NCBI GenBank assembly: GCA_019423565.1
Contig: JAHZBE010000002.1
Span: 83,692-147,691, forward strand
Direction of reading: 5' to 3'
Length of the DNA: 64,000 nucleotides
From: a bacterium
Lineage (GTDB): Bacteria > Bacillota_I > Bacilli_A > RF39 > UBA660
Shown: piece after piece, positions 9,600-53,235 of the stretch
How the letters are laid out: every line of letters begins with the position of its first letter
Numbering within the stretch: the stretch's first letter is position 1
The notes under the pieces: model-generated
The model's input: the letters and a program-made list of their open reading frames with translations, nothing else
The model's database searches: none
Told to the model about the DNA's origin: nothing
Program-made: the position numbers and the translations under genes

Positions 9600-9710
9600 C
9601 TCTTATGGTGATTATATCACAATTTTGACACTATGTATAGAACTTTTTTCTATTATATATCAGTAATAATATTCTATGATAAGTGAGAAAATATATATAG
9701 GTGATGATTA

Positions 9711-9980
9711 ATGAATTTTAATAAAGATGATGATAGATATATTTATGAAATAGTAAGTGAAAATATTAAATATTTTAGAATGCATAATAATAGCAAATAT
9801 AGTACATATGGAAAACTAACACAGGAAAAACTTGCAGAATTATGTGATATCAGTCATAGTTTAATTAGTAATATTGAATCAAAAAAAGTTCAACAATCAT
9901 TTAGCATTGCAGTTCTTTATAGAATTTCAAGAATATTAGAAGTTGACATAAAAGAATTTTTTATAAAAAGGAATCTTTAA
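9711..9980 (+). CDS. XRE-family HTH protein
   Basis: 89 aa with a Cro/C1-type HTH (LTQEKLAELCDISHSLISNIESKK). Divergent from the Ltp-repeat gene. Confidence 0.7.
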   Translation: MNFNKDDDRYIYEIVSENIKYFRMHNNSKYSTYGKLTQEKLAELCDISHSLISNIESKKVQQSFSIAVLYRISRILEVDIKEFFIKRNL

Positions 9981-16683: not shown

Positions 16684-16750
16684 ATTTTCACCAGTCCACT
16701 ATATAATATGAAAAAAATTATTTACTCGTCACTATAATAGCCTAATACAA

Positions 16751-16836
16751 AAAAATGCACAAAATATTCAAAATATTGTGCATTTTCACTTTTTTTAAAC
16801 CCTATTTTGCACAATCATTGTGCATTTTTTATTCTT
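16751..16836. repeat. Direct repeat copy 1 (3' flank of fic): imperfect 27-bp palindrome + perfect 17-bp palindrome + stop codon
   Basis: 16756-16782 is TGCACAAAATATTCAAAATATTGTGCA. 16808-16824 is TGCACAATCATTGTGCA, followed by TTTT and the stop. It aligns without gaps to 17949-18034 at an offset of 1198 bp, with about 14 mismatches in 86 positions by eye. Confidence 0.85.
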
Positions 16837-17911: not shown

Positions 17912-17948
17912 CTACAGTGATATTAACATTTTTTTCTTCAAAAGTAAA

Positions 17949-18034
17949 GAAAATGCACAATATTTGCGATATTTTGTGCATTTTTACCTTTTTTAGACAT
18001 TGTTTTGCACAATGATTGTGCATTTTTTATTCTT
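17949..18034. repeat. Direct repeat copy 2 (between the virD4-like stop and the fic start)
   Basis: 17954-17980 is TGCACAATATTTGCGATATTTTGTGCA. 18006-18022 is TGCACAATGATTGTGCA, followed by TTTT and the stop. Internal spacing (25 nt) is the same as in copy 1. Confidence 0.85.
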
Positions 18035-20258: not shown

Positions 20259-20296
20259 CTAATCCACTTCTCCCTTTTAAATCTATTTATATTATA

Positions 20297-20326
20297 ACAA
20301 AAAAAAAGGTATTTTTAAATACCTTT
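20297..20326 (-). terminator. Rho-independent terminator between the hydrolase and virD4-like genes
   Basis: 8-bp stem AAAGGTAT/ATACCTTT (20305-20312 / 20319-20326) plus a T-run on the minus strand, 5 nt after the stop at 20332. An extended -10 TGtTATAAT (20291-20299) follows immediately and could drive virD4. Confidence 0.7.
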
Positions 20327-20331
20327 AATAA

Positions 20332-23148
20332 TTATTTTGCATATGTATTGTATATTCTTTGAGCGTTTGCTGTTCTGTTTCTTATTTCTTTATTACAATC
20401 TGTTTGTTGATTTCTACAATGTGTTCTACCACCATATTCATATACAATAAGAAATTCTGATGCAGCTTTTGATACATCATCTGTAGATTTTAAAAGTTTG
20501 TATAATTCTTTATATTCACCACCTGGACTAATTCCATGCGTTTCAGGTTCTTTCATTGATATATCCAAAAACAATAATTGAGTCTCAAGATCAGCGACAT
20601 ATTCTTTTCCTTTAAAATCATATAATGCTTCTTTTAGTGTACACCAAGTAAATCCAGCAATTCCAAATCCACCATCACCAGGTGCATAATTTGTACAACT
20701 AGTTCCAACCAATGTACCAGTAAATTTTTCTTTTGATATTTCACCTGAAGCAACTTTTTTAGCGTATTCTGTATTTAAATGGTCCTCATCACCATTAACT
20801 ATATCAGGATAATATGTCGATTCTTGGAAAAAGTTTCCCATCATTCCTGCTGCACCTGCTTTAGTATATCCTAGAGATAATAAATAATTCCATATATCCG
20901 GTTCTGCTTCTGGACCAACTCTTTTAAGTGAACCTGTTAATGCACCACAAGGAATAAATAAATTTGTTGGATCAATTGCAGTTCCATTTGAATCCTGTAA
21001 TGCATCCATAAATGTAAAATGCAATCCTTCCGTATTATATTCACTTGAATCTATAGATGCAATTGCATCACCCTTATTAACCGTAAGCCCCTCTTTCAAA
21101 GTAGATATTGGCTTAACATTTGAATATATTGTTATAAATTTATATTCTTTTTCATTTATAGTTACATCATGACTTATTTTTACAGATTTTCCACAAGTAT
21201 TCTCGCCACATTTAGCATCAGTAATTGATTCAACTTTACCTTTAGCAACAGAATAAACACTATCACCTGCTTTAACACCTGCAGTAGTTTCATTCAAATC
21301 TACACCATTATGATTTTTACCATTAACTATACCATATGAATAATTTGTATCAAAATTAACAGTAGTTCCATCAGGTATATTTACCGGTTTACCTAATTCA
21401 GACACTAGTGCACTATCTATTGCTCCAACACAAGTTTCAGAATATTCTTCACTAGAACCACTTGTATTCCTTAAAAATATATCTCTAAATAAACCTTCAT
21501 TAGCTACAATATCTTTATATAACATTTCTTTCTTTTGTTCTAAAGCATCATCAGTTAATCCACCTATATAATTATGAAATTCAGGCATATTCATAAAATA
21601 ATAATTCATTAAATAATTCTTATAATTATCTTCATCAAATACATATGTATCATAATAAGTAACTGTAATTTTTAAGCCACTTCTATCAACTGACACTATA
21701 TCATATATTCCATAAAATAAATCTCCTACTAAACTAGCCAGAGAGGAAACAAAATCTTCTGCAACTAATCCTTCGTTTTCAAAAAATGAACCAGAATATT
21801 CAGATCCCAATAATAAAGCCGTTAACTCTTTAAATGGTGCAGTAATAACACCCCATGAAGCACCCAAAATATCTGTTAATACATCTGACGTATCACTGGC
21901 AATCAATTTAGCATTATTTTTTATAAAATCGAGTAATGAAACAGTTATTGGAGTACCAGATCTTGTCGCATTTCCAAAAAAATCTGTACTAAACTGATTC
22001 CTTGCAAGTTTCCTTAATCTATATATCTTACCAGTATTATAAACAAGTCCATCAGAATCAACAGTTTGTTGTGCCTCATCAAATTTATCTCTCATCCATT
22101 CTTTTGCTCCCTGAAAATATCCTGAATTTGAAGATTGGCTATTCATAGAATTATCCACAGCACTTTCGTCCTCAATATTTTGATATTTAGTATCATATCC
22201 AGCACCCTCTGTATAAAAAAGTGTTGAAAGAAGAAGAGGAACATTTAATCCTTCACCATTATTGTTATTATCACAACCATACCTATCACATAAATCATCA
22301 ATTTCGTCATAAAACGCTTCCTTTGAATCTTGAAAACCAAAACCGCTATAAAAGTTTGATAACTTTTCACTAAAATTGGCTACTCCAGTTATAGCTTCAT
22401 CAATATTTCCCCAAACTTCCATTAAAGGTCCAAGAATTAATTCAACAACAAAAAGAATTAATAATGGTCCAAGTGCTAGCAAAACTAGAAAAAGAGCTAA
22501 TCTCATTTTCATTTTCTTTATAAATGCACTTGAAATCATAGCTAAAGCATCGCTAGGGTGAGTTGCAGCATACGCTTTTGATTTTAAATGATCCTTTTTA
22601 ATATTTCTAAGATTTTTTTTGTCTTGTTTAAGTTTGTTTTTTTCGTCATTTAATTTGTTTTTAGCTTCTTTATCTTCTTTTTTTGCAGAATCCAAATTAT
22701 TCTTATCATCTAAATTTCTTTGACTCGTAGAAACCATTCTATTATCGTTTCTTACTTTTTTTAATCTTTCTGCACTTTGGTCTTTATTATTACTTGCCTT
22801 TTTTATATTTTCTTTAGTATCATTAATTCTATCCTGTGCATCTTTTTTTAAATTATTGTAATGATTTTTATCATTTAATCCTTTTTTAAAAGCTTCTCGA
22901 CCACTACTTGCCTTATTATATTTTCCATTTTTTACGTCGTCTATCTTTTTTTCATCATTATCCGTAGTTCCGCTTATCTGTTCACTTTCACTGTTTTCAA
23001 TATTTGATGATATAGAAGATGTATCAGCTTTTTTTTCATCATTTTCTGTAATACCATTTACAGACTCATTTTCACTATTTTCATTGGTTGATGAAACGGA
23101 AGATGAATCATCATTTCCAACTTCTTTAAAATCTTCTTCATTTTCCAT
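20332..23148 (-). CDS. T4SS-associated bifunctional cell-wall hydrolase (M23 peptidase + lysozyme-like domain)
   Basis: 938 aa. Charged N-terminus with a duplicated about 25-aa S/N/E-rich unit and one TM (LALFLVLLALGPLLILFVV). M23 motifs (GKNHNGVDL ... GLHFTF). The C-terminal IWNYLLSLGYTKAGAAGMMGNFFQES...GFGIAGFTW resembles the phage-tail-lysozyme type domain. Confidence 0.75.
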   Translation of the reverse strand: MENEEDFKEVGNDDSSSVSSTNENSENESVNGITENDEKKADTSSISSNIENSESEQISGTTDNDEKKIDDVKNGKYNKASSGREAFKKGLNDKNHYNNLKKDAQDRINDTKENIKKASNNKDQSAERLKKVRNDNRMVSTSQRNLDDKNNLDSAKKEDKEAKNKLNDEKNKLKQDKKNLRNIKKDHLKSKAYAATHPSDALAMISSAFIKKMKMRLALFLVLLALGPLLILFVVELILGPLMEVWGNIDEAITGVANFSEKLSNFYSGFGFQDSKEAFYDEIDDLCDRYGCDNNNNGEGLNVPLLLSTLFYTEGAGYDTKYQNIEDESAVDNSMNSQSSNSGYFQGAKEWMRDKFDEAQQTVDSDGLVYNTGKIYRLRKLARNQFSTDFFGNATRSGTPITVSLLDFIKNNAKLIASDTSDVLTDILGASWGVITAPFKELTALLLGSEYSGSFFENEGLVAEDFVSSLASLVGDLFYGIYDIVSVDRSGLKITVTYYDTYVFDEDNYKNYLMNYYFMNMPEFHNYIGGLTDDALEQKKEMLYKDIVANEGLFRDIFLRNTSGSSEEYSETCVGAIDSALVSELGKPVNIPDGTTVNFDTNYSYGIVNGKNHNGVDLNETTAGVKAGDSVYSVAKGKVESITDAKCGENTCGKSVKISHDVTINEKEYKFITIYSNVKPISTLKEGLTVNKGDAIASIDSSEYNTEGLHFTFMDALQDSNGTAIDPTNLFIPCGALTGSLKRVGPEAEPDIWNYLLSLGYTKAGAAGMMGNFFQESTYYPDIVNGDEDHLNTEYAKKVASGEISKEKFTGTLVGTSCTNYAPGDGGFGIAGFTWCTLKEALYDFKGKEYVADLETQLLFLDISMKEPETHGISPGGEYKELYKLLKSTDDVSKAASEFLIVYEYGGRTHCRNQQTDCNKEIRNRTANAQRIYNTYAK

Positions 23149-23182
23149 TTTATCACCACCTTTTACTTCAAATATTTATATA

Positions 23183-24973
23183 TTATAATCCGCCTCTTGT
23201 ACCAAACGAATCAAGTTCTGCATCTGTTGCTATTACACTTATTTGCATACGTTTACTACCACATACAAATAATGCATCTCCTTGATTATATCTCTTAATA
23301 CCTTCTTTTTCATTATCATTTAAATCAATTAATTTTGATAAATCTTCAACAGCTTGCTTTTTAAGTCCCATAACAAGATAATATGAAGCATTATCAAATA
23401 TTGCTTTACCCTGCATTAATACATTTGGAGCAGCAAAGTCACTTGGTTGTTGTGTTATAATTATTGTTCCACTATTATATTTACGCGCTCTTCTTTGTAC
23501 TTGGGCTAAGAAATCTGCACCAAGCATATTATTATTTCCAAGTAAAATATGAGCTTCATCTACTTGTAATACTGTGTTTTGACTAGGATCAAGACATAAT
23601 CCCCAAGCATATTTTAATATATTAAAGAATAAGGCATTTTTTATATTTACTTCCGCATTTATTAATTCTCTAATATTGAATACAATAAAATTTGATTTTG
23701 GACTTATTGTAGTATGTCCATCAAAATAATGTTCAAGTCCACCAGAAATTAATGGTCTAACTTTTAATTCAAGTTTTTCCATTATATCTCTTTCCCTAGT
23801 AGCTTCACCATATGAAAGTATTCTTCCACGGATAGTTGTATAAACATCACTAAATGTAGGAAAATCTTCACTTGTTAATGTTGTAAAGTCAGTTTTAACG
23901 TTAATATTAAATCTTTGATATGTTTCAACAACAACCTCATTAAATAATGTTAATACATCCTCTTCAATTGATGGATCATAATATTTCATAAATGCTTTTA
24001 AAGTTTGAAGAGTCTTAGCTAAAACCGCATAACCAAGTCCTCTTGACGATTCTTCTTCGTCAGCATCTGGAACTATTTCAAGTGGATTAATCATACCAAA
24101 TTCTCCACCACGTCCTAAATCTATAAAGTCACCATTATAAAGTCTCGCCATTGGTTCAAGTTCACCTTCTGGATCTATTGCAATTATTTTATAACCATTT
24201 CTTACATGTGATCTCAAAAGTAATTTAGCTGCAGTTGATTTACCTGATCCAGAAGTACCAAGAATAATCATATTAGCATTATTTCTATTATGTTCTTTTT
24301 TTATTTGATATAAGAATTGATTAAATAAAATTATACCACCAGAAAAATCTACACCAAGTAAGCAAGATAATCCCTGATCCTTAATACTATCAAATACAAA
24401 AGGATACATAGCCGCAAGTGTTGGTGATGGAATTGGTGTTCCAATTCTATCTTCAATATCTTGCTTACCAAATATAGGTAAACATGATTTTAATACTTTT
24501 TCCTGTTCAAATCTAAGAGGAATAGCTCTCATTTCCATGGCTTCTAATGTTGATTTTAAAGATACCTTTGTTCTTTCAAGTTCTTCCTTCGTATCAGCTG
24601 TAATCATTATATGCATCTGAAAATCAAATACCTTTGATTGATTTGTAGTAATAACTTTAATAAATGATTCAAGTGATTCATAATCTTGTCTTATTCTTTC
24701 TTGATATGTTACATCTGGTTCTTTTTGATACTTATCGTATAAATCTACTAATTGTTTATTTAGCATTTTAGAAACAACTTCAAATGCAACAGGTATATGT
24801 TTAATAACTATTTTTACTCCCGCCATACCAGAAGTTAAGCTTGATAAATAACCCGCTGTAATATATTTTGGATATGATAAAACAGTAAGTATAGTTGCAA
24901 ACTTATCGCTAACAATAAAATCTGATGTATTAAATGTTAATCCCTTTGGAGCAAGTTCAGTTTTAATCCCCAT
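23183..24973 (-). CDS. virB4: VirB4-like conjugal transfer ATPase, ATPase body
   Basis: 596 aa. Walker A ILGTSGSGKSTAAK, Walker B VLQVDEAH. Confidence 0.85.
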   Translation of the reverse strand: MGIKTELAPKGLTFNTSDFIVSDKFATILTVLSYPKYITAGYLSSLTSGMAGVKIVIKHIPVAFEVVSKMLNKQLVDLYDKYQKEPDVTYQERIRQDYESLESFIKVITTNQSKVFDFQMHIMITADTKEELERTKVSLKSTLEAMEMRAIPLRFEQEKVLKSCLPIFGKQDIEDRIGTPIPSPTLAAMYPFVFDSIKDQGLSCLLGVDFSGGIILFNQFLYQIKKEHNRNNANMIILGTSGSGKSTAAKLLLRSHVRNGYKIIAIDPEGELEPMARLYNGDFIDLGRGGEFGMINPLEIVPDADEEESSRGLGYAVLAKTLQTLKAFMKYYDPSIEEDVLTLFNEVVVETYQRFNINVKTDFTTLTSEDFPTFSDVYTTIRGRILSYGEATRERDIMEKLELKVRPLISGGLEHYFDGHTTISPKSNFIVFNIRELINAEVNIKNALFFNILKYAWGLCLDPSQNTVLQVDEAHILLGNNNMLGADFLAQVQRRARKYNSGTIIITQQPSDFAAPNVLMQGKAIFDNASYYLVMGLKKQAVEDLSKLIDLNDNEKEGIKRYNQGDALFVCGSKRMQISVIATDAELDSFGTRGGL

Positions 24974-25514
24974 TATTGATCACCGTCCCACTTTCATATT
25001 TAACACCACCATTTAAGAAATTATCTATAATCATTCTTAAATCATCATTAGATGTTTGTGATGCAATTAAACCACAATTAGCAAGTTCACTAATTAAACT
25101 TCTAATTCTCTTTTGTATTACATCATTATCTTTCGATTTAAACAAAATGAAATACTCAGTATCCACTATACCATTATTAACAAATAATTCAGCCTTCGCA
25201 ATATCATCTGATAGTAATTTTCTATATATAGGACTCTGTGCATCATTTAACTGAAGTTGAAGTTGTGATACATATAAATTTATATCAACAGGCCTATCAG
25301 CTATAATAAGCCAAAATTCATAATCAATCAAATTATAAAAAGTTCTAAAAGATTCTATTATTTGATCTCTATAATTTTCTTCAAGTATAAAAATATTTCT
25401 AGGTTGTACTTTTACACCCGTAACCATTTCTTTATTATCAAGTAAAATAACATTATTATTAATATCCTTAACAGGAATCCACTTTTCAGTATATATACTA
25501 CTATTTGTACTCAT
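24963..25514 (-). CDS. virB4: VirB4 N-terminal domain encoded as a separate overlapping ORF (probable frameshift)
   Basis: The 183-aa ORF (WIPVKDINNNVILLDNKEMVTGVKVQPRNIFIL...) resembles the N-terminal domain that is fused to the ATPase in Gram-positive VirB4 homologues such as Tn916 ORF16, as I recall it. The overlap falls in the C4 run 24968-24971. One base fewer fuses the two as ...VINNG-IKTELAPKG... Confidence 0.65.
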   Translation of the reverse strand: MSTNSSIYTEKWIPVKDINNNVILLDNKEMVTGVKVQPRNIFILEENYRDQIIESFRTFYNLIDYEFWLIIADRPVDINLYVSQLQLQLNDAQSPIYRKLLSDDIAKAELFVNNGIVDTEYFILFKSKDNDVIQKRIRSLISELANCGLIASQTSNDDLRMIIDNFLNGGVKYESGTVINNGD

Positions 25515-25806
25515 TCTTATAACACCAACCTTCCCATTTATAATTTCTCCTTCCGTAAAAGAAATCTATTATCTCTCTTATTAACGTTAATATATTATGA
25601 TAATTTGGTATTGGAACAACTAAAAATCCTGTAACTAGTAATGGTATTAAACATATTAATGAGAGATTGAAAGTAGTAGGAGCAATTATCAAAAGTAATA
25701 ATACAGATAAAACTACTCCACTACCAAATAAAATTAAATCAAATTTCGTAAATAATCCAAATATTAACGTACCTTTTTTGGCATTTGCAGGTATTAAATA
25801 ATTCAC
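25501..25806 (-). CDS. PrgI/VirB3-like small two-TM T4SS protein
   Basis: 101 aa with two hydrophobic helices, positioned immediately upstream of virB4 as in Gram-positive conjugation modules. Confidence 0.6.
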   Translation of the reverse strand: MNYLIPANAKKGTLIFGLFTKFDLILFGSGVVLSVLLLLIIAPTTFNLSLICLIPLLVTGFLVVPIPNYHNILTLIREIIDFFYGRRNYKWEGWCYKNEYK

Positions 25807-25824
25807 TATGTATCACACTCCCTT

Positions 25825-27885
25825 TTATTTGACATTTTCTTTATTAACTTCATTTCCAACTTTAACATATGCTTTCATTCTTGTCTTATCATTTTCTCCC
25901 ATCTTATCAAGCATAGCATTATATGCTGACTCCGCTGTTGAGAAAGCAATGTTAGCATCATTAATTTCGTCGGCAATTTCTTGTTTAGACTTTGTCATAC
26001 CTTTATCTGCGAAATCAACCGAATACTGAATCAATCTTTGAGCTGTATCAGTTAATCCACCACTATCTGTAACAAAGGATGAAATACCACTATTTGATAA
26101 ATTGGACATCAATTGTTTTGTATTAATTTGTCCTGAATCAAAATTAGTTTGCATTTCCAATATTTTTTGTTTTTCATCATTCGAACTTGCAGCTTTCATT
26201 GCATTATTCAATATTTCCCCTACAGAATTATAACTATTCTGTGCATTTTCAGCCTGTAACAACTTAAATTTCTTTTCCATATAACTATTTGCTGTTGCCT
26301 TTTGATTCTTTTTAAATGGAGATTTATCCATAATCGATTTTGATTGAACACCTTGTGCAATTTTTTTATCTATATTTCCTTCTGCATCATATAAATTACC
26401 TTTAACACTGTTTGCAATAGCTTGTGCTTCTGCTTTAGCCTTATCCTTAAGCTTATTAATTTTATTTTGTTCTTTTTCATATTGTCTAGTTGGATTAGCA
26501 TTTTCGTTCCACGTTTTAATTGCATCCTTCGTACCTGCAATTCCATTTGTAGATCTGAAGAATGCACCTGCTGTTTTTGTTAATCTACCTGGTGTTCTAT
26601 CTTTCCAAGCACCTTTTCCTCGGAATCCTTTATTCCAACCATAAGCACCAAATCCTCCAACTAGTCCTGCACCTAGTGCAACTGGCCAATGAGATAACGC
26701 AGCTGCTCCTAATAATCCTGCACCTGCACCAACTTCTCCAACTTTTTTTACAGCTCCCCAAGCTTTTTGTGCCTGTTTTCCAACTGCGGCCATTTCTCCA
26801 AGTCTTCCACCAATACCACCTTTAAGTTTGATATCAGTACCAAATACTTTATTTATCAAATCTGGTAATTGTTTAACAAATATAAGCATTCCAACAATTA
26901 AAAATGCTTTTAAAACAAAACTCCAATCTTCACCTTGAAATGGTTTTAAAAATGATGATAAATTTGATATTAAAAACAAGTAAAAAGCAATACATGCTAT
27001 TCTTATAAATAAATCCATATAAGTTTTTACTAATTCTTGAAACCAAGATGATAAAATTTTATCACCAGCTGCTATATAACCAACAATAGATATAGGCGCA
27101 GTTAATTCCATAAATGCAAGTTTAAATACTCTTACTGCAACATCCATAGAATAAATTACAAGTATATATACACACCCAAGACCACATACAATTGCAAGTA
27201 ATCCATTAAAGTCAAAAGCATATTTTGTATCAGCACCTGCAATCCAACCAGCATTTTCATTATCTGTCGTCGTATTAATATGTTCAGCAAAATTTCCAAT
27301 ATGTTTAATATCTTCGGCAATCATCGCGTTGTAAGATTCTTGAACATCCTCATCAACTTGAATCGTTCCATCATCAACAGGAACAACTACTGATGAAATT
27401 AATGTACCCGCAATAACTTGACCGCCATTACCACCAGATTTACACTTTTCTTCTGCATTTTCTGTTGCTTCGTCACCCTCAACACCACCATCAACTTGAC
27501 AACTTATACCCGTTCCAACAATTATCTTTTCTATCAAACTATTATCCATTATATTTGCTTGTACTGCGTACAAAATATCAAATAATAACGGAACAGCAAC
27601 CATCATAACTAATGCCAAAATAGATCTTTTAAATAATGCCGTTACGCCTTTCTTGTTATCACCTAATAAATCTGGATTTACAATCGCAGATAAAATAACA
27701 ACTGAAAAAGCAAATAGCATTACCACACTTACTAACACATAAATATTAGAAGAAAATTGACTAATAATTTCTGAATCTAAAAATCTTGTGTTAGCTAAAT
27801 TATAAAAAATATAGTATATATACTTTATCAATCTATAAATTGGAATACATATATATATAGCTAGCTTTCTTAATAATGCACTCAT
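25825..27885 (-). CDS. VirB6/TrbL-like polytopic T4SS channel protein
   Basis: 686 aa. Multiple TM helices in the N-terminal two-thirds, a Gly-rich segment (GGIGGRLGEMAAVGK...GAGAGLLGAAAL) and a hydrophilic K/N/Q-rich C-terminal third. Confidence 0.65.
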   Translation of the reverse strand: MSALLRKLAIYICIPIYRLIKYIYYIFYNLANTRFLDSEIISQFSSNIYVLVSVVMLFAFSVVILSAIVNPDLLGDNKKGVTALFKRSILALVMMVAVPLLFDILYAVQANIMDNSLIEKIIVGTGISCQVDGGVEGDEATENAEEKCKSGGNGGQVIAGTLISSVVVPVDDGTIQVDEDVQESYNAMIAEDIKHIGNFAEHINTTTDNENAGWIAGADTKYAFDFNGLLAIVCGLGCVYILVIYSMDVAVRVFKLAFMELTAPISIVGYIAAGDKILSSWFQELVKTYMDLFIRIACIAFYLFLISNLSSFLKPFQGEDWSFVLKAFLIVGMLIFVKQLPDLINKVFGTDIKLKGGIGGRLGEMAAVGKQAQKAWGAVKKVGEVGAGAGLLGAAALSHWPVALGAGLVGGFGAYGWNKGFRGKGAWKDRTPGRLTKTAGAFFRSTNGIAGTKDAIKTWNENANPTRQYEKEQNKINKLKDKAKAEAQAIANSVKGNLYDAEGNIDKKIAQGVQSKSIMDKSPFKKNQKATANSYMEKKFKLLQAENAQNSYNSVGEILNNAMKAASSNDEKQKILEMQTNFDSGQINTKQLMSNLSNSGISSFVTDSGGLTDTAQRLIQYSVDFADKGMTKSKQEIADEINDANIAFSTAESAYNAMLDKMGENDKTRMKAYVKVGNEVNKENVK

Positions 27886-27901
27886 TTCTTACCTCCTATT
27901 C

Positions 27902-29401
27902 TCATTCCCCATTTATAATACAATCCATCAAGCTATAATCACCACCAAATATACTTAATAATAAGCTTATAATTAGTGGTATAGTAATGAACAATATAAG
28001 TAATATCAATCTTTTTGGGAAATTCTTCTTTGATTTATTCATTTTTTCTACATCCGATGCAATTACAGCTTTTGCATAGTCTAAAGTTCCAAAAAATATT
28101 ACAGCAACTGGAGCTAAAATTCTAAGTACCACATAAAACCAGTGGAAAAAACTAACATCATCACATGTAAGTTCATAATGTTTATCAAAATTAATATCTA
28201 AAGTGGGGGCAGAAATACCTGAAAAATTTTTCCATAACTTTTCCTTATTATCCTCTAATTCCTTTTCAAGTTCTTCCTCATTTCTTTCTGCTTGTTTTTT
28301 ATATTGTTCTAAGCACTTGTTTTTTTCTGCATCTTGCGGTATTGAATAGCAATATTTACAATGATTAAAAGCATCGGAACTTCTACAGAATTTTTCCGCA
28401 TCTCCGTTTTCATTTTTACAATAATAATTACAAATAGGTATTTTTTCTTCTCCATCATCTTTATTGTTATCATCATACTTATCTTTTTTATCTTCAATTT
28501 TTTTAACATCAACTAGACTTTCTAAAAATGAAACGCAATTTTCATAATCAGTATTATCATCTAAACTATGATAAATTTTTTTATAAAACCACAGTAAATA
28601 TTCTGGATCATACTCAAGCATTACATATGAAGTAATGGTATACCAATTCATATAACGAACACGTAATAAACCAGCATAACTAGGATCAACATTTTCATCT
28701 TCTAATCCATAATTTTTTGTTGTTTTAGTTACATCACTTTCAACATTTTTTTTCGTCTGTTGATAATATTCTAGAGCTATGCCGCCTTCAGAATACTTAA
28801 TATCACAAGCTGCTAATTTTGCTTTTACGTCATTTTCACTCCCGTTAGAAACGAGTTCATTATAAACATCATGCTTATATTGAAATGTAGGATCATCTTT
28901 TTCTAAATTTTCTTTAAACATATACAGTTGTACACCTGCTTTAATAGATTTTTTTAAATCAATATAATATCCTTCATCCTCATTTGCACTAGATAATGGA
29001 TTGTAAATTAAATTGCCATTATAAAAAACCTCAGAATTTTTATTTGTCCTTTTCGCTTCAAATCCCGAACCTATGCCGTCATAATATACAATTATAAAAC
29101 TAGGACATCCATTATTCTTTACTTCAGATTCAAAACTTAAAGAAGAAAAAGATAAACCTGTTGGTGATGTAAATTTCATATTATAATCTAAAAAATTTTT
29201 AGAATAATCAAGTCTAATAGCAATGCCTTCATAAACAGCAGCTGTTCCAGTACCGGTACCAGCTCCGTATAATACCTTACCATCACGAACAGGTTCGGAA
29301 TACGTATAGTATTTACAATTTGCCTCAACTTTTTTATTAACAAACGTTGATATAAATACTATAAAAAATATTACTAAAATATTTAAAATTTTTCTTTTCA
29401 T
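27902..29401 (-). CDS. Secreted Cys-rich protein with C-terminal pilin-like (VirB2-like) two-TM module
   Basis: 499 aa with a signal peptide and a Cys-rich central region (CNYYCKNENGDAEKFCRSSDAFNHCKYCYS). The C-terminal about 95 aa (about 27902-28190), LRILAPVAVIFFGTLDYAKAVIASDVEKMNKSKKNFPKRLILLILFITIPLI, is paralogous to the 135-aa protein. Confidence 0.6.
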   Translation of the reverse strand: MKRKILNILVIFFIVFISTFVNKKVEANCKYYTYSEPVRDGKVLYGAGTGTGTAAVYEGIAIRLDYSKNFLDYNMKFTSPTGLSFSSLSFESEVKNNGCPSFIIVYYDGIGSGFEAKRTNKNSEVFYNGNLIYNPLSSANEDEGYYIDLKKSIKAGVQLYMFKENLEKDDPTFQYKHDVYNELVSNGSENDVKAKLAACDIKYSEGGIALEYYQQTKKNVESDVTKTTKNYGLEDENVDPSYAGLLRVRYMNWYTITSYVMLEYDPEYLLWFYKKIYHSLDDNTDYENCVSFLESLVDVKKIEDKKDKYDDNNKDDGEEKIPICNYYCKNENGDAEKFCRSSDAFNHCKYCYSIPQDAEKNKCLEQYKKQAERNEEELEKELEDNKEKLWKNFSGISAPTLDINFDKHYELTCDDVSFFHWFYVVLRILAPVAVIFFGTLDYAKAVIASDVEKMNKSKKNFPKRLILLILFITIPLIISLLLSIFGGDYSLMDCIINGE

Positions 29402-29440
29402 AAGTAAACCTACTTTCTCACTATAATAATAACATAAATT

Positions 29441-29467
29441 AAAAAAAAAAGAAACATATATTTTCTT
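29441..29467 (-). terminator. Intra-cluster terminator/attenuator immediately after the pilin-like gene
   Basis: On the minus strand: AAAGAAA-atatatg-TTTCTTT followed by an 8-T run, 3 nt after the stop at 29470. Confidence 0.55.
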
Positions 29468-29469
29468 TT

Positions 29470-29877
29470 TTATTTATCATATCTATCGCTTTGGTCCAAC
29501 TTAGGCCCATGAGTAGCTGCATCCCAGCATGCTGCAAAATTACTTTTTGGTGCCGCAAAAGTTATTACCGCTTCAACTATTGTTGGTATTAAGAATACTA
29601 TAACTGCTGCAATTATTCTCTTTACAAAAGGTTTTTGAGCTTCTTTAATTTTCTTCTCATCACCAGCTATAACAGCTTTTCCCATATCTAATGTTCCAAA
29701 TAAAATCAATCCAAAAGGTACAGCTATTCTTAATATTCTTATAGCTAATTTTACTAAATATAGAATACCAAGAATTGTTTCTGTTGGATCCTCACCGTTT
29801 CCTGTAGCAAAACTACATTCACCATCTAAAAAATCCAAAACATTTAATAAGTTCAACATAATTAATCCTCCTAACAT
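29470..29877 (-). CDS. VirB2/TrbC-like pilin-like small membrane protein
   Basis: 135 aa. Hydrophobic leader and two TM helices around LRIAVPFGLILFGTLDMGKAVIAGDEKKIKEAQKPFVKRIIAAVIVFLIPTIV. AGGAGG RBS at 29867-29872. First gene of the T4SS cluster. Confidence 0.55.
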   Translation of the reverse strand: MLGGLIMLNLLNVLDFLDGECSFATGNGEDPTETILGILYLVKLAIRILRIAVPFGLILFGTLDMGKAVIAGDEKKIKEAQKPFVKRIIAAVIVFLIPTIVEAVITFAAPKSNFAACWDAATHGPKLDQSDRYDK

Positions 29878-29890
29878 TTCTTATAAACTT

Positions 29891-29940
29891 ATTTTATAAT
29901 TATTAACATAAATTGTCAATAATTAATGAAAAATTTATGT
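29891..29940 (-). promoter_or_regulatory. Sigma-A-type promoter of the T4SS cluster, embedded in a 9-bp inverted repeat
   Basis: On the minus strand: TTGACA (29914-29919), 17 nt, TAAAAT (29891-29896). The inverted repeat ACATAAATT/AATTTATGT (29906-29914 / 29932-29940) brackets the -35. Confidence 0.55.
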
Positions 29941-29962
29941 CAAATGAATCAAATTAGTTTAA

Positions 29963-32647
29963 TTACTTTATTATTTCATCAAGAATATTTCTTATTTTAT
30001 CTTCTTCATTTGATCCATTTGTTTTTAATCTTACTAGTGGTATACCACATTTTTTTAAAATATTATTCTTTTTTTGATCTCTAATTTTTTGTATTTCTTT
30101 ATTATGAAATTTATAACTATCTACTTCAACTGCTAAAACAGGAGTTTTATCAAATTTATTATATATTAAAAGATCAATATGTGAATTTGTATGAATAAAT
30201 TTAATTTCTTCATCATTTAATATTTCCTCATCTTTTACTATTTTTATGAGTGGATAATGATTATTTAATACATCATAAACATTATATTTTTCTTTTTTTA
30301 ATATTTTCTTTAACATGTAATATGTAACATTCTCTGAATTAAAATTGAATATTTTAGGGTATTTACCTAAAAATTCTTCTAATTTTGTTTTATTTACTTT
30401 ATATAAAAGATCATAAATAGAATTTATATTACTTTGTATTTCTTCAAAATTATTATAATTTATATATTTTATTAAACTTGATATATTTGAATTATCATTT
30501 GACTTATATTCATATGGCGTTACTAAATATAATTTATTTACTGCTCTTGATATTGCAACATTAATTGAATTTGGATTATCTAAAAAACTATCTATATCAT
30601 TTGCGACAGTACTAAATATTATTAAATCTTTTTCACTACCTTGAAATCCATGTACAGTATCTATTTGAACATTTTTACAATCAATTCTATCAATCAGATA
30701 TTCTTTCTGTGGTCTATATGGTGTTACTAAACCAATAGAATCTTTATATATATTTATATTTTCATTTGGAATTAATTCATTTATAATTACATCTGCTTGT
30801 CTTTCATTATACCAACTTGTATTCTTTTTTCTAGCATGATTACCTTTTACACATTTATATCTTTTAATTGGTGACTCAACAGTATTCTTAGTTAATATTA
30901 TTAGTTCATTATTATAAAACATTTTATTACAAAATTCTATTATTTTAGGATGACACCTATAATGTTCTCTCAATATCGTTATTGGCATATTATCATATAT
31001 CTTTTTAGTTAAATCAAGCAAATTATTTTCCGTATAATTATATTTTTTATCTATTTCGTATTTATTAAATATATTATTATATTCATTTACTTTTTTTGAA
31101 TTCACTATATTGGGTAATTGCTTAGAATCACCTACTATAACAACATTTTTAGCGGAAGATAGAGCCAAAAATGCAGATGCTAAATCAACTTGTGAAGATT
31201 CATCTATTATTATATAATCAAATACATATCCACTAGAGATAGAGTTTAATAATGAATATGTTGTACTTAAAATAATTGGATAATCCTTTATTAATTTATT
31301 TGTATTTTTTACAGTTGTATTATTATATATATTTTTATTATTGTAATTTTCATAAACATAATTTTTAAAATATTTCATTGACAACTTTGTATAATTATCA
31401 AATTTATCTTCTAAATCAAATTTTGAAATAAAATTTTCTTTTTCTTTTATAATTCCATCTAACTCTTTTATCTTTTTTTCATAGTATAACTTTTCTATAT
31501 TTTCTAATATATCCTTTATTTTGTTATTATAAAGTTCTGGATTAAAAAATTTATATTTAATTTGTGATATAACTTGAACTTTTTTATTAAAATATTCTGT
31601 CATATTTTCCTGTTTATTCAAATAAAGAAAAAATTGATGAAGTCTTTCTGTTGATAGATTAGGCAACTTTATTTCTTGTATATTTGATATATTTTTATCA
31701 TAATGTTCATACTCTAGTTTTAATTCATATAGTTCTTGATTAAGTATAGCAATATCATTTTTATACTCTAAATATAAATCAATATCTTTTTTCATTATGT
31801 GTAAATCATTTATAATTTCTTCTTTTTTTCCATTATCAATATACCAAGAATTAGGATATGGTTTTATTTCAATTTGACTTTCAATAAATTTATCTATATT
31901 AGAAACTCTCCCTAATCTTGCACATAATGAAGATAAACCATTTTTTTCTAATTTTTCATACACATTTTTAGTCGCAGCATTATTATTTGAAACAACTGCA
32001 ACTGTTTTTTCATTAAGAATTATATTAGATAACATATTTAATATAGTTTGTGTTTTCCCTGTTCCTGGAGGTCCTTCTATAACACTTATTTTATTAGAAA
32101 GTGCATTTTCAAGTGCTTTTTCTTGACTAGAATTAAAACTAAATGGAAATATAATATTATTATCGCTAAAATCCATATCAGAAATAAATTCTTTTTCCCC
32201 TGAAATATAATTTTTCAAAACAGATTCTTCACTTATAAAAGTTAATTTTTCATATGCTTTTTTTAATATCTTATCATTTTTACCTCTTAATTCCTCATCA
32301 TGTTTTATATCATCTACAGTAATAGCATTTGATAATTCTTTAAAATAATCAAATATTTGTTTATTCTCTCTAGAGTTCAATAAAGTTTTTTCTATTTTTA
32401 TATTTTCTTTTTTATATATTTTACTTGTCCCATTTTCAAAAAATATTTTAATATATTCTTTAAAATCAAGAGCTTTTTTTACATGTGTTAAGGCTCTTGT
32501 AGTTACAAATCTATCTCCTGTTATATCAATTGGATCCTTATATATTATTAATTTATTTAAATCATAATCATCTATATTTTCAATAACTTTTTTAGTAATA
32601 TCTTTTTTCCACGAATCTAAAAACAAATATTTTTCTTCAAAATTCAT
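29963..32647 (-). CDS. SF1B (Upf1/DNA2-like) helicase fused to a C-terminal DUF2726-like nuclease-fold domain
   Basis: Walker A IEGPPGTGKTQT, Walker B IIIDESSQV, then VIVGDSKQLP, LREHYRCHPKIIEFCN, VHGFQGSEKD, NVAISRAVNKLYLV. C-terminal HIDLLIYNKFDKTPVLAVEVDSYKFHNKEIQKIRDQKKNNILKKCGIPLVRL. I prefer the ATG at 32647 (MNFEEKY...) because the track TTG at 32662 lies only 4 nt from the predicted TSS. Confidence 0.8.
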   Translation of the reverse strand: MNFEEKYLFLDSWKKDITKKVIENIDDYDLNKLIIYKDPIDITGDRFVTTRALTHVKKALDFKEYIKIFFENGTSKIYKKENIKIEKTLLNSRENKQIFDYFKELSNAITVDDIKHDEELRGKNDKILKKAYEKLTFISEESVLKNYISGEKEFISDMDFSDNNIIFPFSFNSSQEKALENALSNKISVIEGPPGTGKTQTILNMLSNIILNEKTVAVVSNNNAATKNVYEKLEKNGLSSLCARLGRVSNIDKFIESQIEIKPYPNSWYIDNGKKEEIINDLHIMKKDIDLYLEYKNDIAILNQELYELKLEYEHYDKNISNIQEIKLPNLSTERLHQFFLYLNKQENMTEYFNKKVQVISQIKYKFFNPELYNNKIKDILENIEKLYYEKKIKELDGIIKEKENFISKFDLEDKFDNYTKLSMKYFKNYVYENYNNKNIYNNTTVKNTNKLIKDYPIILSTTYSLLNSISSGYVFDYIIIDESSQVDLASAFLALSSAKNVVIVGDSKQLPNIVNSKKVNEYNNIFNKYEIDKKYNYTENNLLDLTKKIYDNMPITILREHYRCHPKIIEFCNKMFYNNELIILTKNTVESPIKRYKCVKGNHARKKNTSWYNERQADVIINELIPNENINIYKDSIGLVTPYRPQKEYLIDRIDCKNVQIDTVHGFQGSEKDLIIFSTVANDIDSFLDNPNSINVAISRAVNKLYLVTPYEYKSNDNSNISSLIKYINYNNFEEIQSNINSIYDLLYKVNKTKLEEFLGKYPKIFNFNSENVTYYMLKKILKKEKYNVYDVLNNHYPLIKIVKDEEILNDEEIKFIHTNSHIDLLIYNKFDKTPVLAVEVDSYKFHNKEIQKIRDQKKNNILKKCGIPLVRLKTNGSNEEDKIRNILDEIIK

Positions 32648-32672
32648 ATAATCACTTCTCAAACTTAAGCGT

Positions 32673-32701
32673 ATTATATCATTACTTATTTTATTTGTAA
32701 A
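32673..32701 (-). promoter_or_regulatory. Sigma-A-type promoter of the helicase gene
   Basis: On the minus strand: TTTACA (32696-32701), 17 nt, TATAAT (32673-32678). Confidence 0.55.
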
Positions 32702-32713
32702 ATAAATAATAAT

Positions 32714-32742
32714 ATAAAAACCACTTAAAATTTTAAGTAGTT
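32714..32742 (-). terminator. Rho-independent terminator of htrA
   Basis: On the minus strand: CTACTTAAAATTTTAAGTGG hairpin followed by TTTTTAT, about 13 nt after the TAG at 32755. Confidence 0.6.
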
Positions 32743-32754
32743 TCTATTGTTATT

Positions 32755-33834
32755 CTAATTTTTTTCTATTAACTTCATATCAAGTGTACTTTCTTTTCCA
32801 TCTCTTATATATGTTACTTTAATAGTATCACCTGTTTTATGCTCGTATAAATAATATCTAAGTGTACTAACGTTAGTTACTTTATTATCATCAAATTTAG
32901 TTATTACATCGCCAACTTTTAATCCTGATTTTTCTGCTGAATAACCATTTTCTAATTTTACTATTACAACACCTGATTTTATATTACTATCTAAATTTAT
33001 GTTATATCTATATAAACTATATTTATTACTTGCTTCTATTACTGATATTCCTATTGATGGTCTTTTTATTTCTTCACCTTTTTCTAGATATGTAACATAA
33101 TTTTTAACATCATTTATTGGTATTGCAAATCCCATACCTTCTATTTCTTCTGTTGCAAGTTTCATAGATGTAATACCTATTACTTCACCAGCCAAATTAA
33201 CAAGTGGACCACCACTATTACCAGGATTTATTGCAGCATCTGTTTGTATTACCTTTGCTATTATGGAATCTGTTTCTATCATTCTATCTTTACCAGATAT
33301 AATACCTCTTGTTATAGAACCACTATAATCTGATCCCATAGGACTACCAATTGCTATTACTGTTGATCCTAAATTAATATTATCACTATCGCCTAAAGTA
33401 GCAACCTTTTTAACTTTACTTTTATCTATTGAAAGAACAGCTATATCAGTATATTCATCACTACCAAGTAATTTAACCTCTACTGTTTCATTATCTGATA
33501 AAATAACCTCTATTTTATCTGCAGAATCTATTACATGGTGATTTGTAAGTATGTAACCCTTATTATCATCTACTTTATATACAAATCCTGATCCACTACC
33601 TATATTTTGATTATTTTTATAGCTTTCTACAGTTACAACAGAATCATATGCTTTATCTATTGAATCTTCTATTGCTGTTTCACTTAATTTTGTTTCATTA
33701 ACTGTTTTCTTTTCTGTTATTACTTTTGACTCTACTGGAAAATATTTTAAATATATAATAACTGCAAATACAGCACTAAATATTGTAAATACATAAGCTA
33801 AAAAATATTTAAATAATCTTTTCCTATCTTTCAT
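32755..33834 (-). CDS. htrA: HtrA/DegP-family serine protease with PDZ domain
   Basis: 359 aa with an N-terminal TM. Catalytic triad contexts TNHHVI, DIAVL, GNSGGPLVN. C-terminal PDZ-like region. Confidence 0.9.
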   Translation of the reverse strand: MKDRKRLFKYFLAYVFTIFSAVFAVIIYLKYFPVESKVITEKKTVNETKLSETAIEDSIDKAYDSVVTVESYKNNQNIGSGSGFVYKVDDNKGYILTNHHVIDSADKIEVILSDNETVEVKLLGSDEYTDIAVLSIDKSKVKKVATLGDSDNINLGSTVIAIGSPMGSDYSGSITRGIISGKDRMIETDSIIAKVIQTDAAINPGNSGGPLVNLAGEVIGITSMKLATEEIEGMGFAIPINDVKNYVTYLEKGEEIKRPSIGISVIEASNKYSLYRYNINLDSNIKSGVVIVKLENGYSAEKSGLKVGDVITKFDDNKVTNVSTLRYYLYEHKTGDTIKVTYIRDGKESTLDMKLIEKN

Positions 33835-33845
33835 ATTATCATCCT

Positions 33846-34781
33846 CTATTCTATATTTATCAAATCCATATAATTTTCTGGAAAACCTAATGTATCATAT
33901 ATTTTATTAATTTTAACTGATTTTATTTGCCATGTTAAATCTTGAAGTTTAAGATTTATTTCATCCATCATATGCATAAATTCATCTTTTGTAAGCATTT
34001 GTTTTAATATTATTATTAACGCAAATATATCATTTTTTCCTTTTATGTATTCACCAAATTCATCTTGCTTTATTTTTAGTTCATTATGATATTTAGTATT
34101 AGAAATATATTTTTGTGTTCTATGGTCAAATACTATATCTTCATGTGCACACAAATTTCTATAATTTGCAAGTAATGATAAATATACTTCCATATCTTCC
34201 ATTTCAATTCCATAAAGATCTGCAATTTCTTTTTGGTCCTCTGGTTTTAGTATACCATAAAGTTCATTTATTAAACCAAATGACAGCACTTTTACAAGTA
34301 CCCATAAAGGAATATAACCATAATTTGTTATATAATGAAGAGTTGCACTATGATTTTGACTATTTACTCTAATTTGCCTTTTCATTTTATTTATTACATC
34401 ACTAACTCTTCTTTTATCTTTATTGTCAGTTGTAAAATTTGATTCCTTTAAGTAATTTTTCTCTTTATAACCATATTTAATAGATAACTTATATGATATT
34501 ATACTTTTAATATTATTTTCTATTATTAATAAATTTTTAAATAATATATTTCTAAGTTCTCTATCAAATATAAAAATTGCATATAATTCATCAAAGGTTG
34601 CACCTTTTACAAATTTCTTTTCTTTTGATGAAACCATTAATACTCTTCTATATCCATTTATAAAAAAGTAATTTTCTTTTAAAAGTATATTTCTTGCTTC
34701 TTCTTCATCGTTTATAGTAAGACCCTTACTTTTAAATATTCCAAGTTGTTCATCAAGAGTTTTAAATTCTTTTTTATTCAT
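33846..34781 (-). CDS. Abi_2 (AbiD/AbiF-like) abortive-infection family protein
   Basis: 311 aa. Family-typical segments IENNIKSIISY..., PLWVLVKVLSFG and YRNLCAHEDIVFD (the RNxxAH motif). Confidence 0.7.
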   Translation of the reverse strand: MNKKEFKTLDEQLGIFKSKGLTINDEEEARNILLKENYFFINGYRRVLMVSSKEKKFVKGATFDELYAIFIFDRELRNILFKNLLIIENNIKSIISYKLSIKYGYKEKNYLKESNFTTDNKDKRRVSDVINKMKRQIRVNSQNHSATLHYITNYGYIPLWVLVKVLSFGLINELYGILKPEDQKEIADLYGIEMEDMEVYLSLLANYRNLCAHEDIVFDHRTQKYISNTKYHNELKIKQDEFGEYIKGKNDIFALIIILKQMLTKDEFMHMMDEINLKLQDLTWQIKSVKINKIYDTLGFPENYMDLINIE

Positions 34782-34903
34782 ATTTAAATCACCCTACTAT
34801 CATAAATTATAACATAATTTTTTTTAGACTTAAAGTATTTAAGTTTATTTCTACAACTTAACACTTTTTTCACATATTTTCACATTTTTAGTTATATTTT
34901 TTC

Positions 34904-34936
34904 ACAAAAAAAGAACACATATATATGTGTTCCTTT
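34904..34936 (-). terminator. Rho-independent terminator of the rplM-rpsI operon
   Basis: Perfect 20-bp palindrome GAACACATATATATGTGTTC (34913-34932) followed on the minus strand by a 9-T run. Confidence 0.8.
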
Positions 34937-34947
34937 CCATTACAATA

Positions 34948-35364
34948 TTAACGTTTACTGAATTGTGGTGCCTTACGTGCTTTCTTAAGACCTGGTTTCT
35001 TACGTTCTTTAATTCTTGAATCTCTTGTAATAAATCCTTTAGCTTTTAATATTCTTCTAAATGAAGTTTCGCTTGATGGATCTGTATTTTTATCATATTC
35101 TAATAATGCTCTTGTAATTCCTAAACGGATTGCTCCTGTTTGTCCTGAGAATCCTCCACCTTTTACTTCTACATCGATATCAAATTTATCTAATGTATTA
35201 GTTGCTTCTAGTGGTTGTTTTAAATCCATAACTAATGTTGGAAATGGTAAATATTCATTAACATCTCTACCATTAATAGTGATATTTCCTTTACCAGATG
35301 TCATTCTAACCTTTGCTATTGAAGATTTACGATGACCTGTACCATAATAAATTTTATTTGCCAT
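34948..35364 (-). CDS. rpsI: 30S ribosomal protein S9
   Basis: 138 aa. [16 protein letters not shown]... with C-terminal [17 protein letters not shown]. Confidence 0.95.
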
Positions 35365-53222: not shown

Positions 53223-53235
53223 TATGTACCTCCTA

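Follow-up and report, generated by a model that had tools for sequence, protein, structure and literature searches.

A Upf1-like helicase with a fused DUF2726 nuclease domain, a candidate single-gene immunity protein on a metagenome scaffold

Gene and Domain Organization of the Helicase-Nuclease

The DNA analyzed here (hereafter the window) is an AT-rich stretch of 64 kb (25% G+C) within a 149-kb metagenome scaffold, corresponding to positions 83,692 to 147,691 of contig JAHZBE010000002.1. On its minus strand it carries a gene for a helicase fused to a nuclease domain, a candidate for a self-contained immunity protein, which is the subject of this work. The open reading frame (ORF) list gives this gene as 29963..32662 with a TTG start; the ATG at 32647, which yields a protein of 894 aa, is the likely start codon. 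An earlier note on this DNA, written from the sequence alone, had set the end of the feature at 32701, a position that is the first base of a −35 hexamer and lies outside the ORF. The upstream neighbor encodes an HtrA-like protein with Trypsin_2 and PDZ domains and the downstream neighbor is a gene with a T4SS_pilin match. An identical 894-aa protein is present on two public metagenome contigs, with the same neighbors as in the window. Coordinates are collected in Table 1.

Table 1. Helicase-nuclease gene, encoded domains and surrounding features (positions in the window).
Feature	Position	Strand	Evidence or remarks
Helicase-nuclease coding sequence, 894 aa	29963..32647	(-)	ATG at 32647; stop codon 29963-29965; ORF list, translation, Pfam
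N-terminal family-specific domain, aa 1-165: beta-rich module (aa 7-87), then helices	32153..32647	(-)	AlphaFold2 (AF2) model, profile search
First part of domain 1A, aa 166-262, with Walker A GPPGTGKT (192-199)	31862..32152	(-)	AAA_11; G192 and P194-K198 invariant; 62% mean identity
Long all-helical insertion in domain 1A, aa 263-455, K/E/N/I/L-rich, coiled-coil-like	31283..31861	(-)	AF2 helices 272-319, 377-409, 412-435
Rest of domain 1A and domain 2A, aa 456-715: DESSQ (Walker B), VGDSKQLP, YRCHP, GFQGSEKD, ISRA	30503..31282	(-)	AAA_11, AAA_12, PDB matches, MkoC
Linker and C-terminal DUF2726 / Vsr-like PD-(D/E)xK domain, aa 716-894	29966..30502	(-)	PF10881 match 770-891 = 29975-30340
Promoter-like TTTACA-17-TATAAT, TG-extended −10	32673..32701	(-)	26 nt upstream of the ATG, in the intergenic gap
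Intrinsic-terminator-like hairpin and U-run after the htrA stop codon	32714..32747	(-)	Separates htrA from the helicase gene; RNA fold
Membrane-anchored HtrA-like protease gene (htrA)	32755-33834		11 nt downstream of Abi_2
Abi_2 (AbiD/F-like) gene	33846-34781		11 nt upstream of htrA
Type IV secretion system (T4SS)-type gene block	18027-29877		VirD4 coupling protein, M23 peptidase/lysozyme, VirB4-like ATPase, TraC-like, TrbL_4, 499-aa ORF, pilin-like gene

In the Pfam search, AAA_11 matched residues 171–518 (E 1.9e-26, 93.8 bits, cutoff 27) and AAA_12 residues 551–710 (E 2.1e-27, 96.4 bits, cutoff 27), while DUF2726 (PF10881) matched residues 770–891 with 58.1 bits against a cutoff of 24.7, covering profile positions 7–125 of 126. 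A related Vsr-like family, MTES_1575, gave a weak match at the C-terminus (25.1 bits), under its cutoff of 38.2. The six helicase motifs quoted in the earlier note were all found where it had placed them, namely GPPGTGKT at residues 192–199, DESSQ at 482–486, VGDSKQLP at 505–512, YRCHP at 563–567, GFQGSEKD at 667–674 and ISRA at 699–702. The C-terminal motifs HIDLLIY, LAVEVDSYKFH and RDQKK...VRL lie at residues 823–829, 838–848 and 856–874, respectively, and the key residues of all the quoted motifs are invariant in a family alignment of 40 relatives sharing 38–59% identity.

Membership in the Upf1-like helicases of superfamily 1B (SF1B) is supported by the scores of both helicase Pfam domains, which exceed the gathering scores, and by the intact motifs I, II and VI and other SF1 motifs. 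A sequence search of the 894-aa protein against PDB with phmmer returned Sen1, Upf1, IGHMBP2 and DNA2 (E 1e-14 to 4e-18). The AF2 model of the protein reached a pLDDT of 87.3 and a pTM of 0.82, and Foldseek with this model gave SETX, IGHMBP2, UPF1, Sen1 and Dna2 as top matches (E about 1e-17 to 1e-21). Since the sequence matches in PDB and the structural matches of a confident model agree, the assignment to the Upf1/DNA2-type SF1B helicases is sound. Both domain calls of the earlier note, this one and that of a DUF2726 C-terminus of PD-(D/E)xK type, were right. Judged by its sequence, the protein can be filed both among the Upf1-like helicases and in DUF2726. Family membership suggests that the motor would move 5' to 3' on single-stranded nucleic acid. 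The only PHROGs matches were a helicase-core family of unknown function and an "exonuclease V" match in the P-loop region.

DUF2726 has been placed in the PD-(D/E)xK superfamily, where it is listed next to Vsr and DUF559 (PMC3424549), and Aravind's group has described it as a DNase of the restriction endonuclease fold which is fused to defense-type N-terminal domains (PMC3710099). In the AF2 model of the C-terminal domain the order of elements is alpha-beta-beta-beta-alpha-beta, and on this core the acidic, His and Lys residues of catalytic type are conserved, which, together with a Pfam score above the gathering score, supports membership in DUF2726. Residues E772, H823, D825, E841, D843, H848, Q853, D857, K860 and R873 are invariant among the 40 aligned sequences, and all the invariant nuclease-domain residues except H823 remain so when the 34%-identical orthologue of E. 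coli is added. Consequently the loss of C-terminal catalytic residues, which the earlier note had named as a finding that would refute its interpretation, was not observed. A search of PDB sequences with a sequence profile found no solved homologue of the C-terminal domain.

The N-Terminal Domain and the Helical Insertion

The earlier note had recognized no motif in the N-terminal region, and this was confirmed, as neither Pfam nor PDB nor Foldseek provided a match. In the profile search against PDB sequences nothing was significant, the best hit being an uncharacterized protein solved by nuclear magnetic resonance (E 0.01). Foldseek against PDB gave weak SH3-, Tudor- or PWWP-like matches (best E 0.26) which do not allow an assignment, and Foldseek against BFVD, the database of predicted viral structures, gave a best E of 0.015, also not significant. 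The possibility that this domain is the 1B barrel of Upf1 could not be confirmed. The region folds confidently alone, the AF2 model of residues 1–172 having a pLDDT of 83.6. When its profile was compared with 1.84 billion proteins, 1187 cluster representatives were matched at E ≤ 1e-3; the matches lie almost always at residues 1–180, and full-length matches are of about 900 aa, so the N-terminal domain is private to this family of ~900-aa proteins.

The insertion at residues 263–455 sits after Walker A, in the same position as the helical insertion described for the CnuH helicases. Mean identity to the relatives is 31% in the N-terminal domain and 30% in the insertion, 55–62% in the motor and 46% in the nuclease. 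By this measure, the N-terminus and the insertion change at about twice the rate of the catalytic cores (30–31% vs. 46–62% identity).

Comparison with Known Systems

The protein was compared with the models of PADLOC 2.0.0 and with those of NCBIfam 20, for which curated cutoffs were used. The best PADLOC matches were MkoC (PDLC03924; E 5.5e-56) and MkoA (2.6e-53), followed by PDC-S37 and Hhe, all of them partial and confined to the helicase region. In the case of MkoC, residues 306–747 were aligned with positions 468–981 of a profile of 1136. The NCBIfam models for Hhe, ProA, PLuB and IGHMBP2 also matched the helicase region only and stayed far below their cutoffs.

Mokosh type II, a single gene whose activity against phages has been validated, encodes a Upf1-like helicase with a C-terminal phospholipase D (PLD) nuclease (Millman et al., 2022, bioRxiv 10.1101/2022.05.11.491447), and defense by Mokosh requires both the ATP-binding site and the nuclease site (bioRxiv 10.1101/2022.05.11.491447). 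Like MkoC, the protein of the window is the product of a single gene in which a Upf1-like (COG1112) helicase precedes a C-terminal nuclease. However, this nuclease is of the DUF2726/Vsr-like PD-(D/E)xK type instead of PLD, the N-terminal domain differs and the protein has 894 aa. No PLD family was found in it by Pfam even at E ≤ 1. Membership in Mokosh was therefore rejected: the helicase is homologous to that of MkoC, but the C-terminus is DUF2726 without PLD.

The closest architectural match, by description, is the CnuH-Vsr fusion of Type III-B CoCoNuTs. CnuH is a UPF1-like SF1 helicase in which Walker A is followed by a large helical insertion that contains a coiled coil (Bell et al., 2024, eLife, PMC11090510), and in Type III-B systems a Vsr-like nuclease is fused directly to it (PMC11090510). 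Compared with this published description, the protein of the window shares the UPF1-like motor, the helical insertion after Walker A and the fused Vsr-like PD-(D/E)xK domain. In contrast, Type III-B CnuH has an N-terminal Sul7s-like winged helix-turn-helix where the window protein has a beta-rich orphan domain, and CnuH is encoded with the McrB- and McrC-like CnuB and CnuC and with CnuD and CnuA, whereas the window gene and its relatives stand alone. Among the 295 genes neighboring the relatives (see below), no McrB or McrC family is found within the 25 most frequent Pfam families of either neighbor shell. The protein was not filed as a CoCoNuT because these defining McrBC-like partners are absent.

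Hhe (Gao et al., 2020) is likewise a single gene with the same class of helicase and a C-terminal Vsr-like nuclease, which in Hhe is MTES_1575, and its models gave partial matches (PADLOC 7.4e-27; NCBIfam NF042953 9.6e-33) limited to helicase segments. Nevertheless, Hhe proteins have about 1800–1900 aa and contain DUF4011, for which no match was found in the 894-aa protein, and the score of 112.8 bits against the NF042953 cutoff of 2000 led us to reject membership.

The earlier note had also invoked a logic like that of Nhi. The 606-aa Nhi (SERP2475) consists of an N-terminal HsdR-like PD-(D/E)xK nuclease and a DUF2075/Dda-like helicase (PF09848) (Bari et al., bioRxiv 10.1101/776245); its nuclease and its SF1 helicase are both required for immunity, and it limits the accumulation of phage DNA (bioRxiv 10.1101/776245). 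The logic holds, inasmuch as both are single proteins joining a PD-(D/E)xK nuclease to an SF1 helicase, but membership does not: Nhi is smaller, its order of domains is the reverse, its families differ, and PF09848 matches the window protein only over the P-loop (residues 186–237).

Finally, the motor fold and the helicase motifs are those of the eukaryotic Upf1, IGHMBP2, Sen1/SETX and Dna2, the last of which also pairs a PD-(D/E)xK nuclease with the motor. Only the motor is homologous, and the nuclease of Dna2 is N-terminal and of a different subfamily. Unlike the eukaryotic Upf1-like helicases, the protein has no CH or other accessory domains, and the prokaryotic family is patchy and accessory.

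Distribution of the Family

More than 3757 homologues were scored at E ≤ 1e-10 in the protein search, the best of which are full-length proteins of about 900 aa. In public annotation these best matches appear only as "AAA domain-containing" or "DUF2726 domain-containing" proteins, and as far as the tools used and the searchable literature show, this large family is uncharacterized. A scan of one genome per species detected a relative in at least 586 GTDB species, belonging to Bacillota, Bacteroidota, Campylobacterota, Alphaproteobacteria, Melainabacteria, Spirochaetes, Bdellovibrionota, Chlorobi and Ignavibacteria. Among these species identity is flat at about 35–43% whatever the phylum, a pattern typical of horizontal spread.

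The orthologue of E. coli, WP_236479692.1, is a protein of 893 aa with 34% identity over residues 141–892 and the same C-terminal motifs. Of 5426 complete E. coli genomes, 648 (12%) carry it, nearly always on the chromosome, and it is an accessory gene in this species. Relatives were found on 18 of 72,556 plasmid records, 16 of those 18 being non-mobilizable, and on two partial phage records.

Genomic Neighborhoods of the Relatives

Neighborhoods were examined at 91 related loci, about 85 of them independent. The independent loci provided a first shell of 150 immediate neighbors, and the second shell comprises 145 proteins. The first shell contains 129 Pfam families without a dominant partner. 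The commonest are ResIII (7) and DEAD (6), followed by DUF3427, NERD and the SLFN-type helicase (3 each) and by PLDc_2, RE_NgoFVII and an integrase family (2 each). Compared with PADLOC, the same shell yielded restriction enzymes of type IV (5), type III (2) and type I (2), PbeA (4) and also BrxL, ZorA, JetD and several PDC candidates; these counts are per family and may overlap. The second shell, with 155 Pfam families, adds GajB (3), SNF2-type proteins matching the DpdE and ZorD models (2 each) and serine recombinases (3). Altogether, the types represented among the neighbors comprise type I, III and IV restriction enzymes, BREX, Zorya, Wadjet, Gabija, Thoeris, reverse transcriptases and recombinases.

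Individual contexts illustrate this variety. In one relative a Thoeris system (ThsA/ThsB) is directly adjacent to the gene, in a neighborhood with two large serine recombinases and a CBASS-like pair. In a Bacilli metagenome-assembled genome (locus L006), the gene of a 355-aa reverse transcriptase (RVT_1; 8879–9946), which may belong to a retron or be a defense-associated reverse transcriptase, lies 55 nt upstream of the homologue in the same orientation, and downstream there is a RelB antitoxin gene. The relative of Bacillus shivajii is accompanied by a type II restriction-modification (RM) pair and a PLD-helicase, and that of locus L003 by Abi_2, HtrA, Fic, type I RM and a serine recombinase. 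On the E. coli plasmid pB39_V (locus L094, NZ_OQ420472.1, 8548–13585) the orthologue is followed by a PAPS-reductase-like gene and a gene with a ParB N-terminal domain, within an island with AlpA, IS1 and IS66 elements. Even close relatives at 52–57% identity sit in unrelated contexts. The helicase-nuclease gene thus stands alone, with no obligate partner, and often amid defense and recombination genes.

Upstream Genes and Signals

In the window, the helicase gene is two genes away from an Abi_2 gene, the gene between them being htrA. Like ordinary Firmicute HtrA, the HtrA-like protein is anchored in the membrane at its N-terminus and carries a PDZ domain; its serine motif, GNSGGP, is intact, and it matches over its full length a PHROG of unknown function (phrog_11383, E 5e-89). 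The earlier note had placed a terminator of htrA upstream of the helicase gene, and this was borne out: a 15-bp AU-rich hairpin followed by a U-run folds with a dG of −15.1 kcal/mol (z −4.69), and none of 200 shuffles was as stable. A simple terminator scan had missed it because its stem has fewer than three G-C pairs.

The note had also given the gene a promoter of its own. The TTTACA-17-TATAAT site is present and intergenic, and it has the best promoter-like score in the region 29400–35000 (11 of 12 matches, with the TG). However, 59 promoter-like sites were counted in this region vs. 55.6 in shuffles, so in DNA this rich in AT a consensus match alone is not above chance and proves little.

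These signals bear on the idea that the helicase-nuclease is one part of a three-gene module together with Abi_2 and the membrane HtrA-like protease, in which, for example, the protease or a HEPN-type Abi protein could control the helicase-nuclease. The window shares this trio, with its order and orientation, with L003/L004, whose organisms are distant (identities of 57% for Abi_2, 48% for HtrA and 58% for the helicase), and the Abi_2 and htrA genes are only 11 nt apart; this tight pair is also seen in the distant relative, at 7124–9144 of L003. Nevertheless, the trio is repeated only in L003/L004, Abi_2 being absent from the other 89 loci, and a single further HtrA homologue was found (L074), which has 38% identity and lies on the opposite strand. 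In addition, htrA and the helicase gene are kept apart in the window by the terminator hairpin and a separate promoter-like site and in L003 by two extra small genes, and the HtrA-like protein resembles an ordinary membrane-anchored HtrA. We consider such a module quite improbable.

A second gene with an Abi_2 domain (335 aa, E 1.4e-24) is located at 45735–46742 of the window, adjoining the uvdE and Mur ligase genes.

The Adjacent Type IV Secretion Genes

The T4SS-type genes that follow the helicase gene are a pilin-like gene, a 499-aa ORF (without Pfam match), TrbL_4, a 101-aa ORF, a TraC-like and a VirB4-like gene, M23/lysozyme, the VirD4 coupling protein and Fic. The gap that separates the helicase stop codon from the first gene of the T4SS holds a promoter-like TTGACA-17-TAAAAT site and no clear terminator. 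The palindrome ACATAAATT...AATTTATGT at 29903–29943 overlaps the −35 hexamer and the spacer of this site before the pilin-like gene and may be a repressor operator (fold z −2.5). The T4SS block has a G+C content at third codon positions (GC3) of 0.11–0.16, slightly above that of the host genes, and a tandem 84-nt repeat (74% identical) lies at 22946–23113 inside its M23 peptidase/lysozyme gene.

The second of the two functions offered by the earlier note was that of DNA-processing partner of this relaxase-less T4SS. In such a role the protein would act as a substitute for the relaxase or as an accessory helicase-nuclease. In its favor, the T4SS operon begins directly after the helicase gene, no strong terminator stands between the two, and the search of the whole window for a relaxase or an integrase found neither. 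However, when the nine proteins of the T4SS block were compared by tblastn (E ≤ 1e-5) with the 91 related loci, no homologue of VirD4, VirB4, TrbL, the TraC-like protein, the pilin or the M23/lysozyme protein appeared, the only matches being two unrelated ones of Fic. Co-occurrence with these T4SS genes was thus seen at none of the 91 loci, and no T4SS family is among the 25 commonest Pfam families of either shell. Pfam finds no relaxase-type domain in the 894-aa protein, and of the only 18 plasmid records (among 72,556) that carry a relative, 16 are non-mobilizable. In L003, which is the closest of the relatives that share the upstream synteny, the place of the T4SS is taken by Fic, a type I RM system and a recombinase. 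The partnership is not supported and we regard it as very improbable, which removes the suggestion that the T4SS of the window has an unusual partner for DNA processing.

Since the related loci lack T4SS homologues and L003 has Fic, RM and recombinase genes in that position, the adjacency of helicase and T4SS is best read, on this comparison of sequences, as a coincidence, in which two separate accessory insertions would have entered one variable region after rplM-rpsI.

Proposed Function

Of the two functions considered in the earlier note, single-gene immunity by a nuclease-helicase is the one that we favor, because the family is distributed patchily over the phyla, lacks a conserved partner and resides in neighborhoods rich in defense and recombinase genes. 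With moderate confidence we infer that the 894-aa protein is a self-contained helicase-nuclease, on a single polypeptide, which protects against invading nucleic acid, that is, against phages and possibly plasmids.

The mechanism that we propose follows the analogy of validated relatives, and the nature of its substrate (DNA or RNA), the direction of movement and a role of the N-terminal domain in sensing are likewise inferred. In this mechanism, the fast-evolving N-terminal domain and the coiled-coil-like insertion would sense the invader or gate the activity. The Upf1-like SF1B motor would load on single-stranded nucleic acid, for instance an intermediate of replication or recombination, an RNA or an RNA/DNA hybrid, and ATP would then drive it 5' to 3'. 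Whatever the motor feeds to the tethered Vsr-like PD-(D/E)xK domain would be cut there, and the outcome could be either direct destruction of the invader or abortive infection.

Several observations weigh against immunity. There is no compositional sign of recent transfer of the helicase gene, whose GC3 (0.086) equals that of the host genes. The order rplM-rpsI ... Abi_2-htrA-helicase is common to the window and L003, where the ribosomal proteins L13 and S9 are 69–70% identical, and this conserved order, together with the host-like GC3, suggests a long residence in at least this lineage and looks more like stable inheritance than is usual for defense genes. The contexts of Clostridium baratii and C. 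estertheticum have few recognizable defense genes, one context on a metagenome contig is likewise less telling, and the enrichment of defense genes around the relatives is qualitative. Moreover, no PADLOC 2.0.0 model matches the full length of the protein, no NCBIfam model reaches its curated cutoff, and no experimental study of any member of the AAA_11/AAA_12-DUF2726 family was found in the searchable literature.

The host-like GC3 and the order shared with L003 leave room for the three-gene module discussed above or for a housekeeping role. In the latter case, the protein would be a chromosomal helicase-nuclease for DNA repair or recombination, or for RNA quality control, acting like Dna2 or Upf1 on the nucleic acids of the cell itself. 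The closest solved relatives are precisely Dna2, Upf1, Sen1 and IGHMBP2, the GC3 of the gene is indistinguishable from that of host genes, its position after rplM-rpsI...htrA is kept in a relative with ribosomal proteins about 70% identical, and several contexts are without obvious defense genes. These data contrast with the patchy spread of the family, which is found in 12% of E. coli genomes and in scattered species over many phyla at similar identity, with its completely variable neighborhoods containing many restriction, defense and recombinase genes, with the unrelated contexts of other close relatives (52–57% identity) and with the existence of plasmid-borne copies. Conserved housekeeping contexts, which in the earlier note would have spoken against immunity, were not seen: contexts are variable, with the exception of the Abi_2-htrA-helicase order common to a distant relative. 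A housekeeping role therefore seems unlikely.

Returning to immunity, we would give about even chances to the broader hypothesis that the ~900-aa AAA_11/AAA_12-DUF2726 family is a widespread unnamed single-gene immune system, with a motor of Mokosh-II type in which the PLD effector has been exchanged for a Vsr-like nuclease and with a private N-terminal domain that senses a phage-derived trigger. It is less likely that in this genome the helicase-nuclease additionally polices DNA entering through the adjacent relaxase-less T4SS. As an orthologue exists in E. coli, the defense idea is directly testable in a standard laboratory host.

If the hypothesis is true, hundreds of species from seven or more phyla, and one eighth of the sequenced E. 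coli, would carry a compact one-gene helicase-nuclease defense which is unnamed in the PADLOC 2.0.0 and NCBIfam 20 catalogues. It would also represent a natural swap of effectors on the Mokosh/CnuH motor, from PLD to a Vsr-like PD-(D/E)xK nuclease, which bears on whether Upf1-like systems attack RNA or DNA, and a domain of unknown fold would be added as a candidate sensor at the N-terminus.

Other Features of the Window

No tRNA genes were found in the 64 kb of the window. The search for attachment site (att)-like direct repeats bounding an island between rpsI and the VTT/RmuC genes gave only chance-like AT-rich matches and a repeat flanking the Fic gene. The latter is an 88-nt direct repeat (84% identical) whose copies, at 16749–16836 and 17947–18034, bracket this gene (16829–17911, minus strand). 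In each copy there are two palindromes of the form TGCACAA...TTGTGCA. These may serve as operators or terminators, or they may mark where a small cassette ends. Finally, two adjacent genes at 50775–61020 encode giant proteins with cadherin-like repeats, of 815 and 2594 aa, the larger of which has 19 Cadherin-like repeats and a weak dockerin match at its C-terminus.

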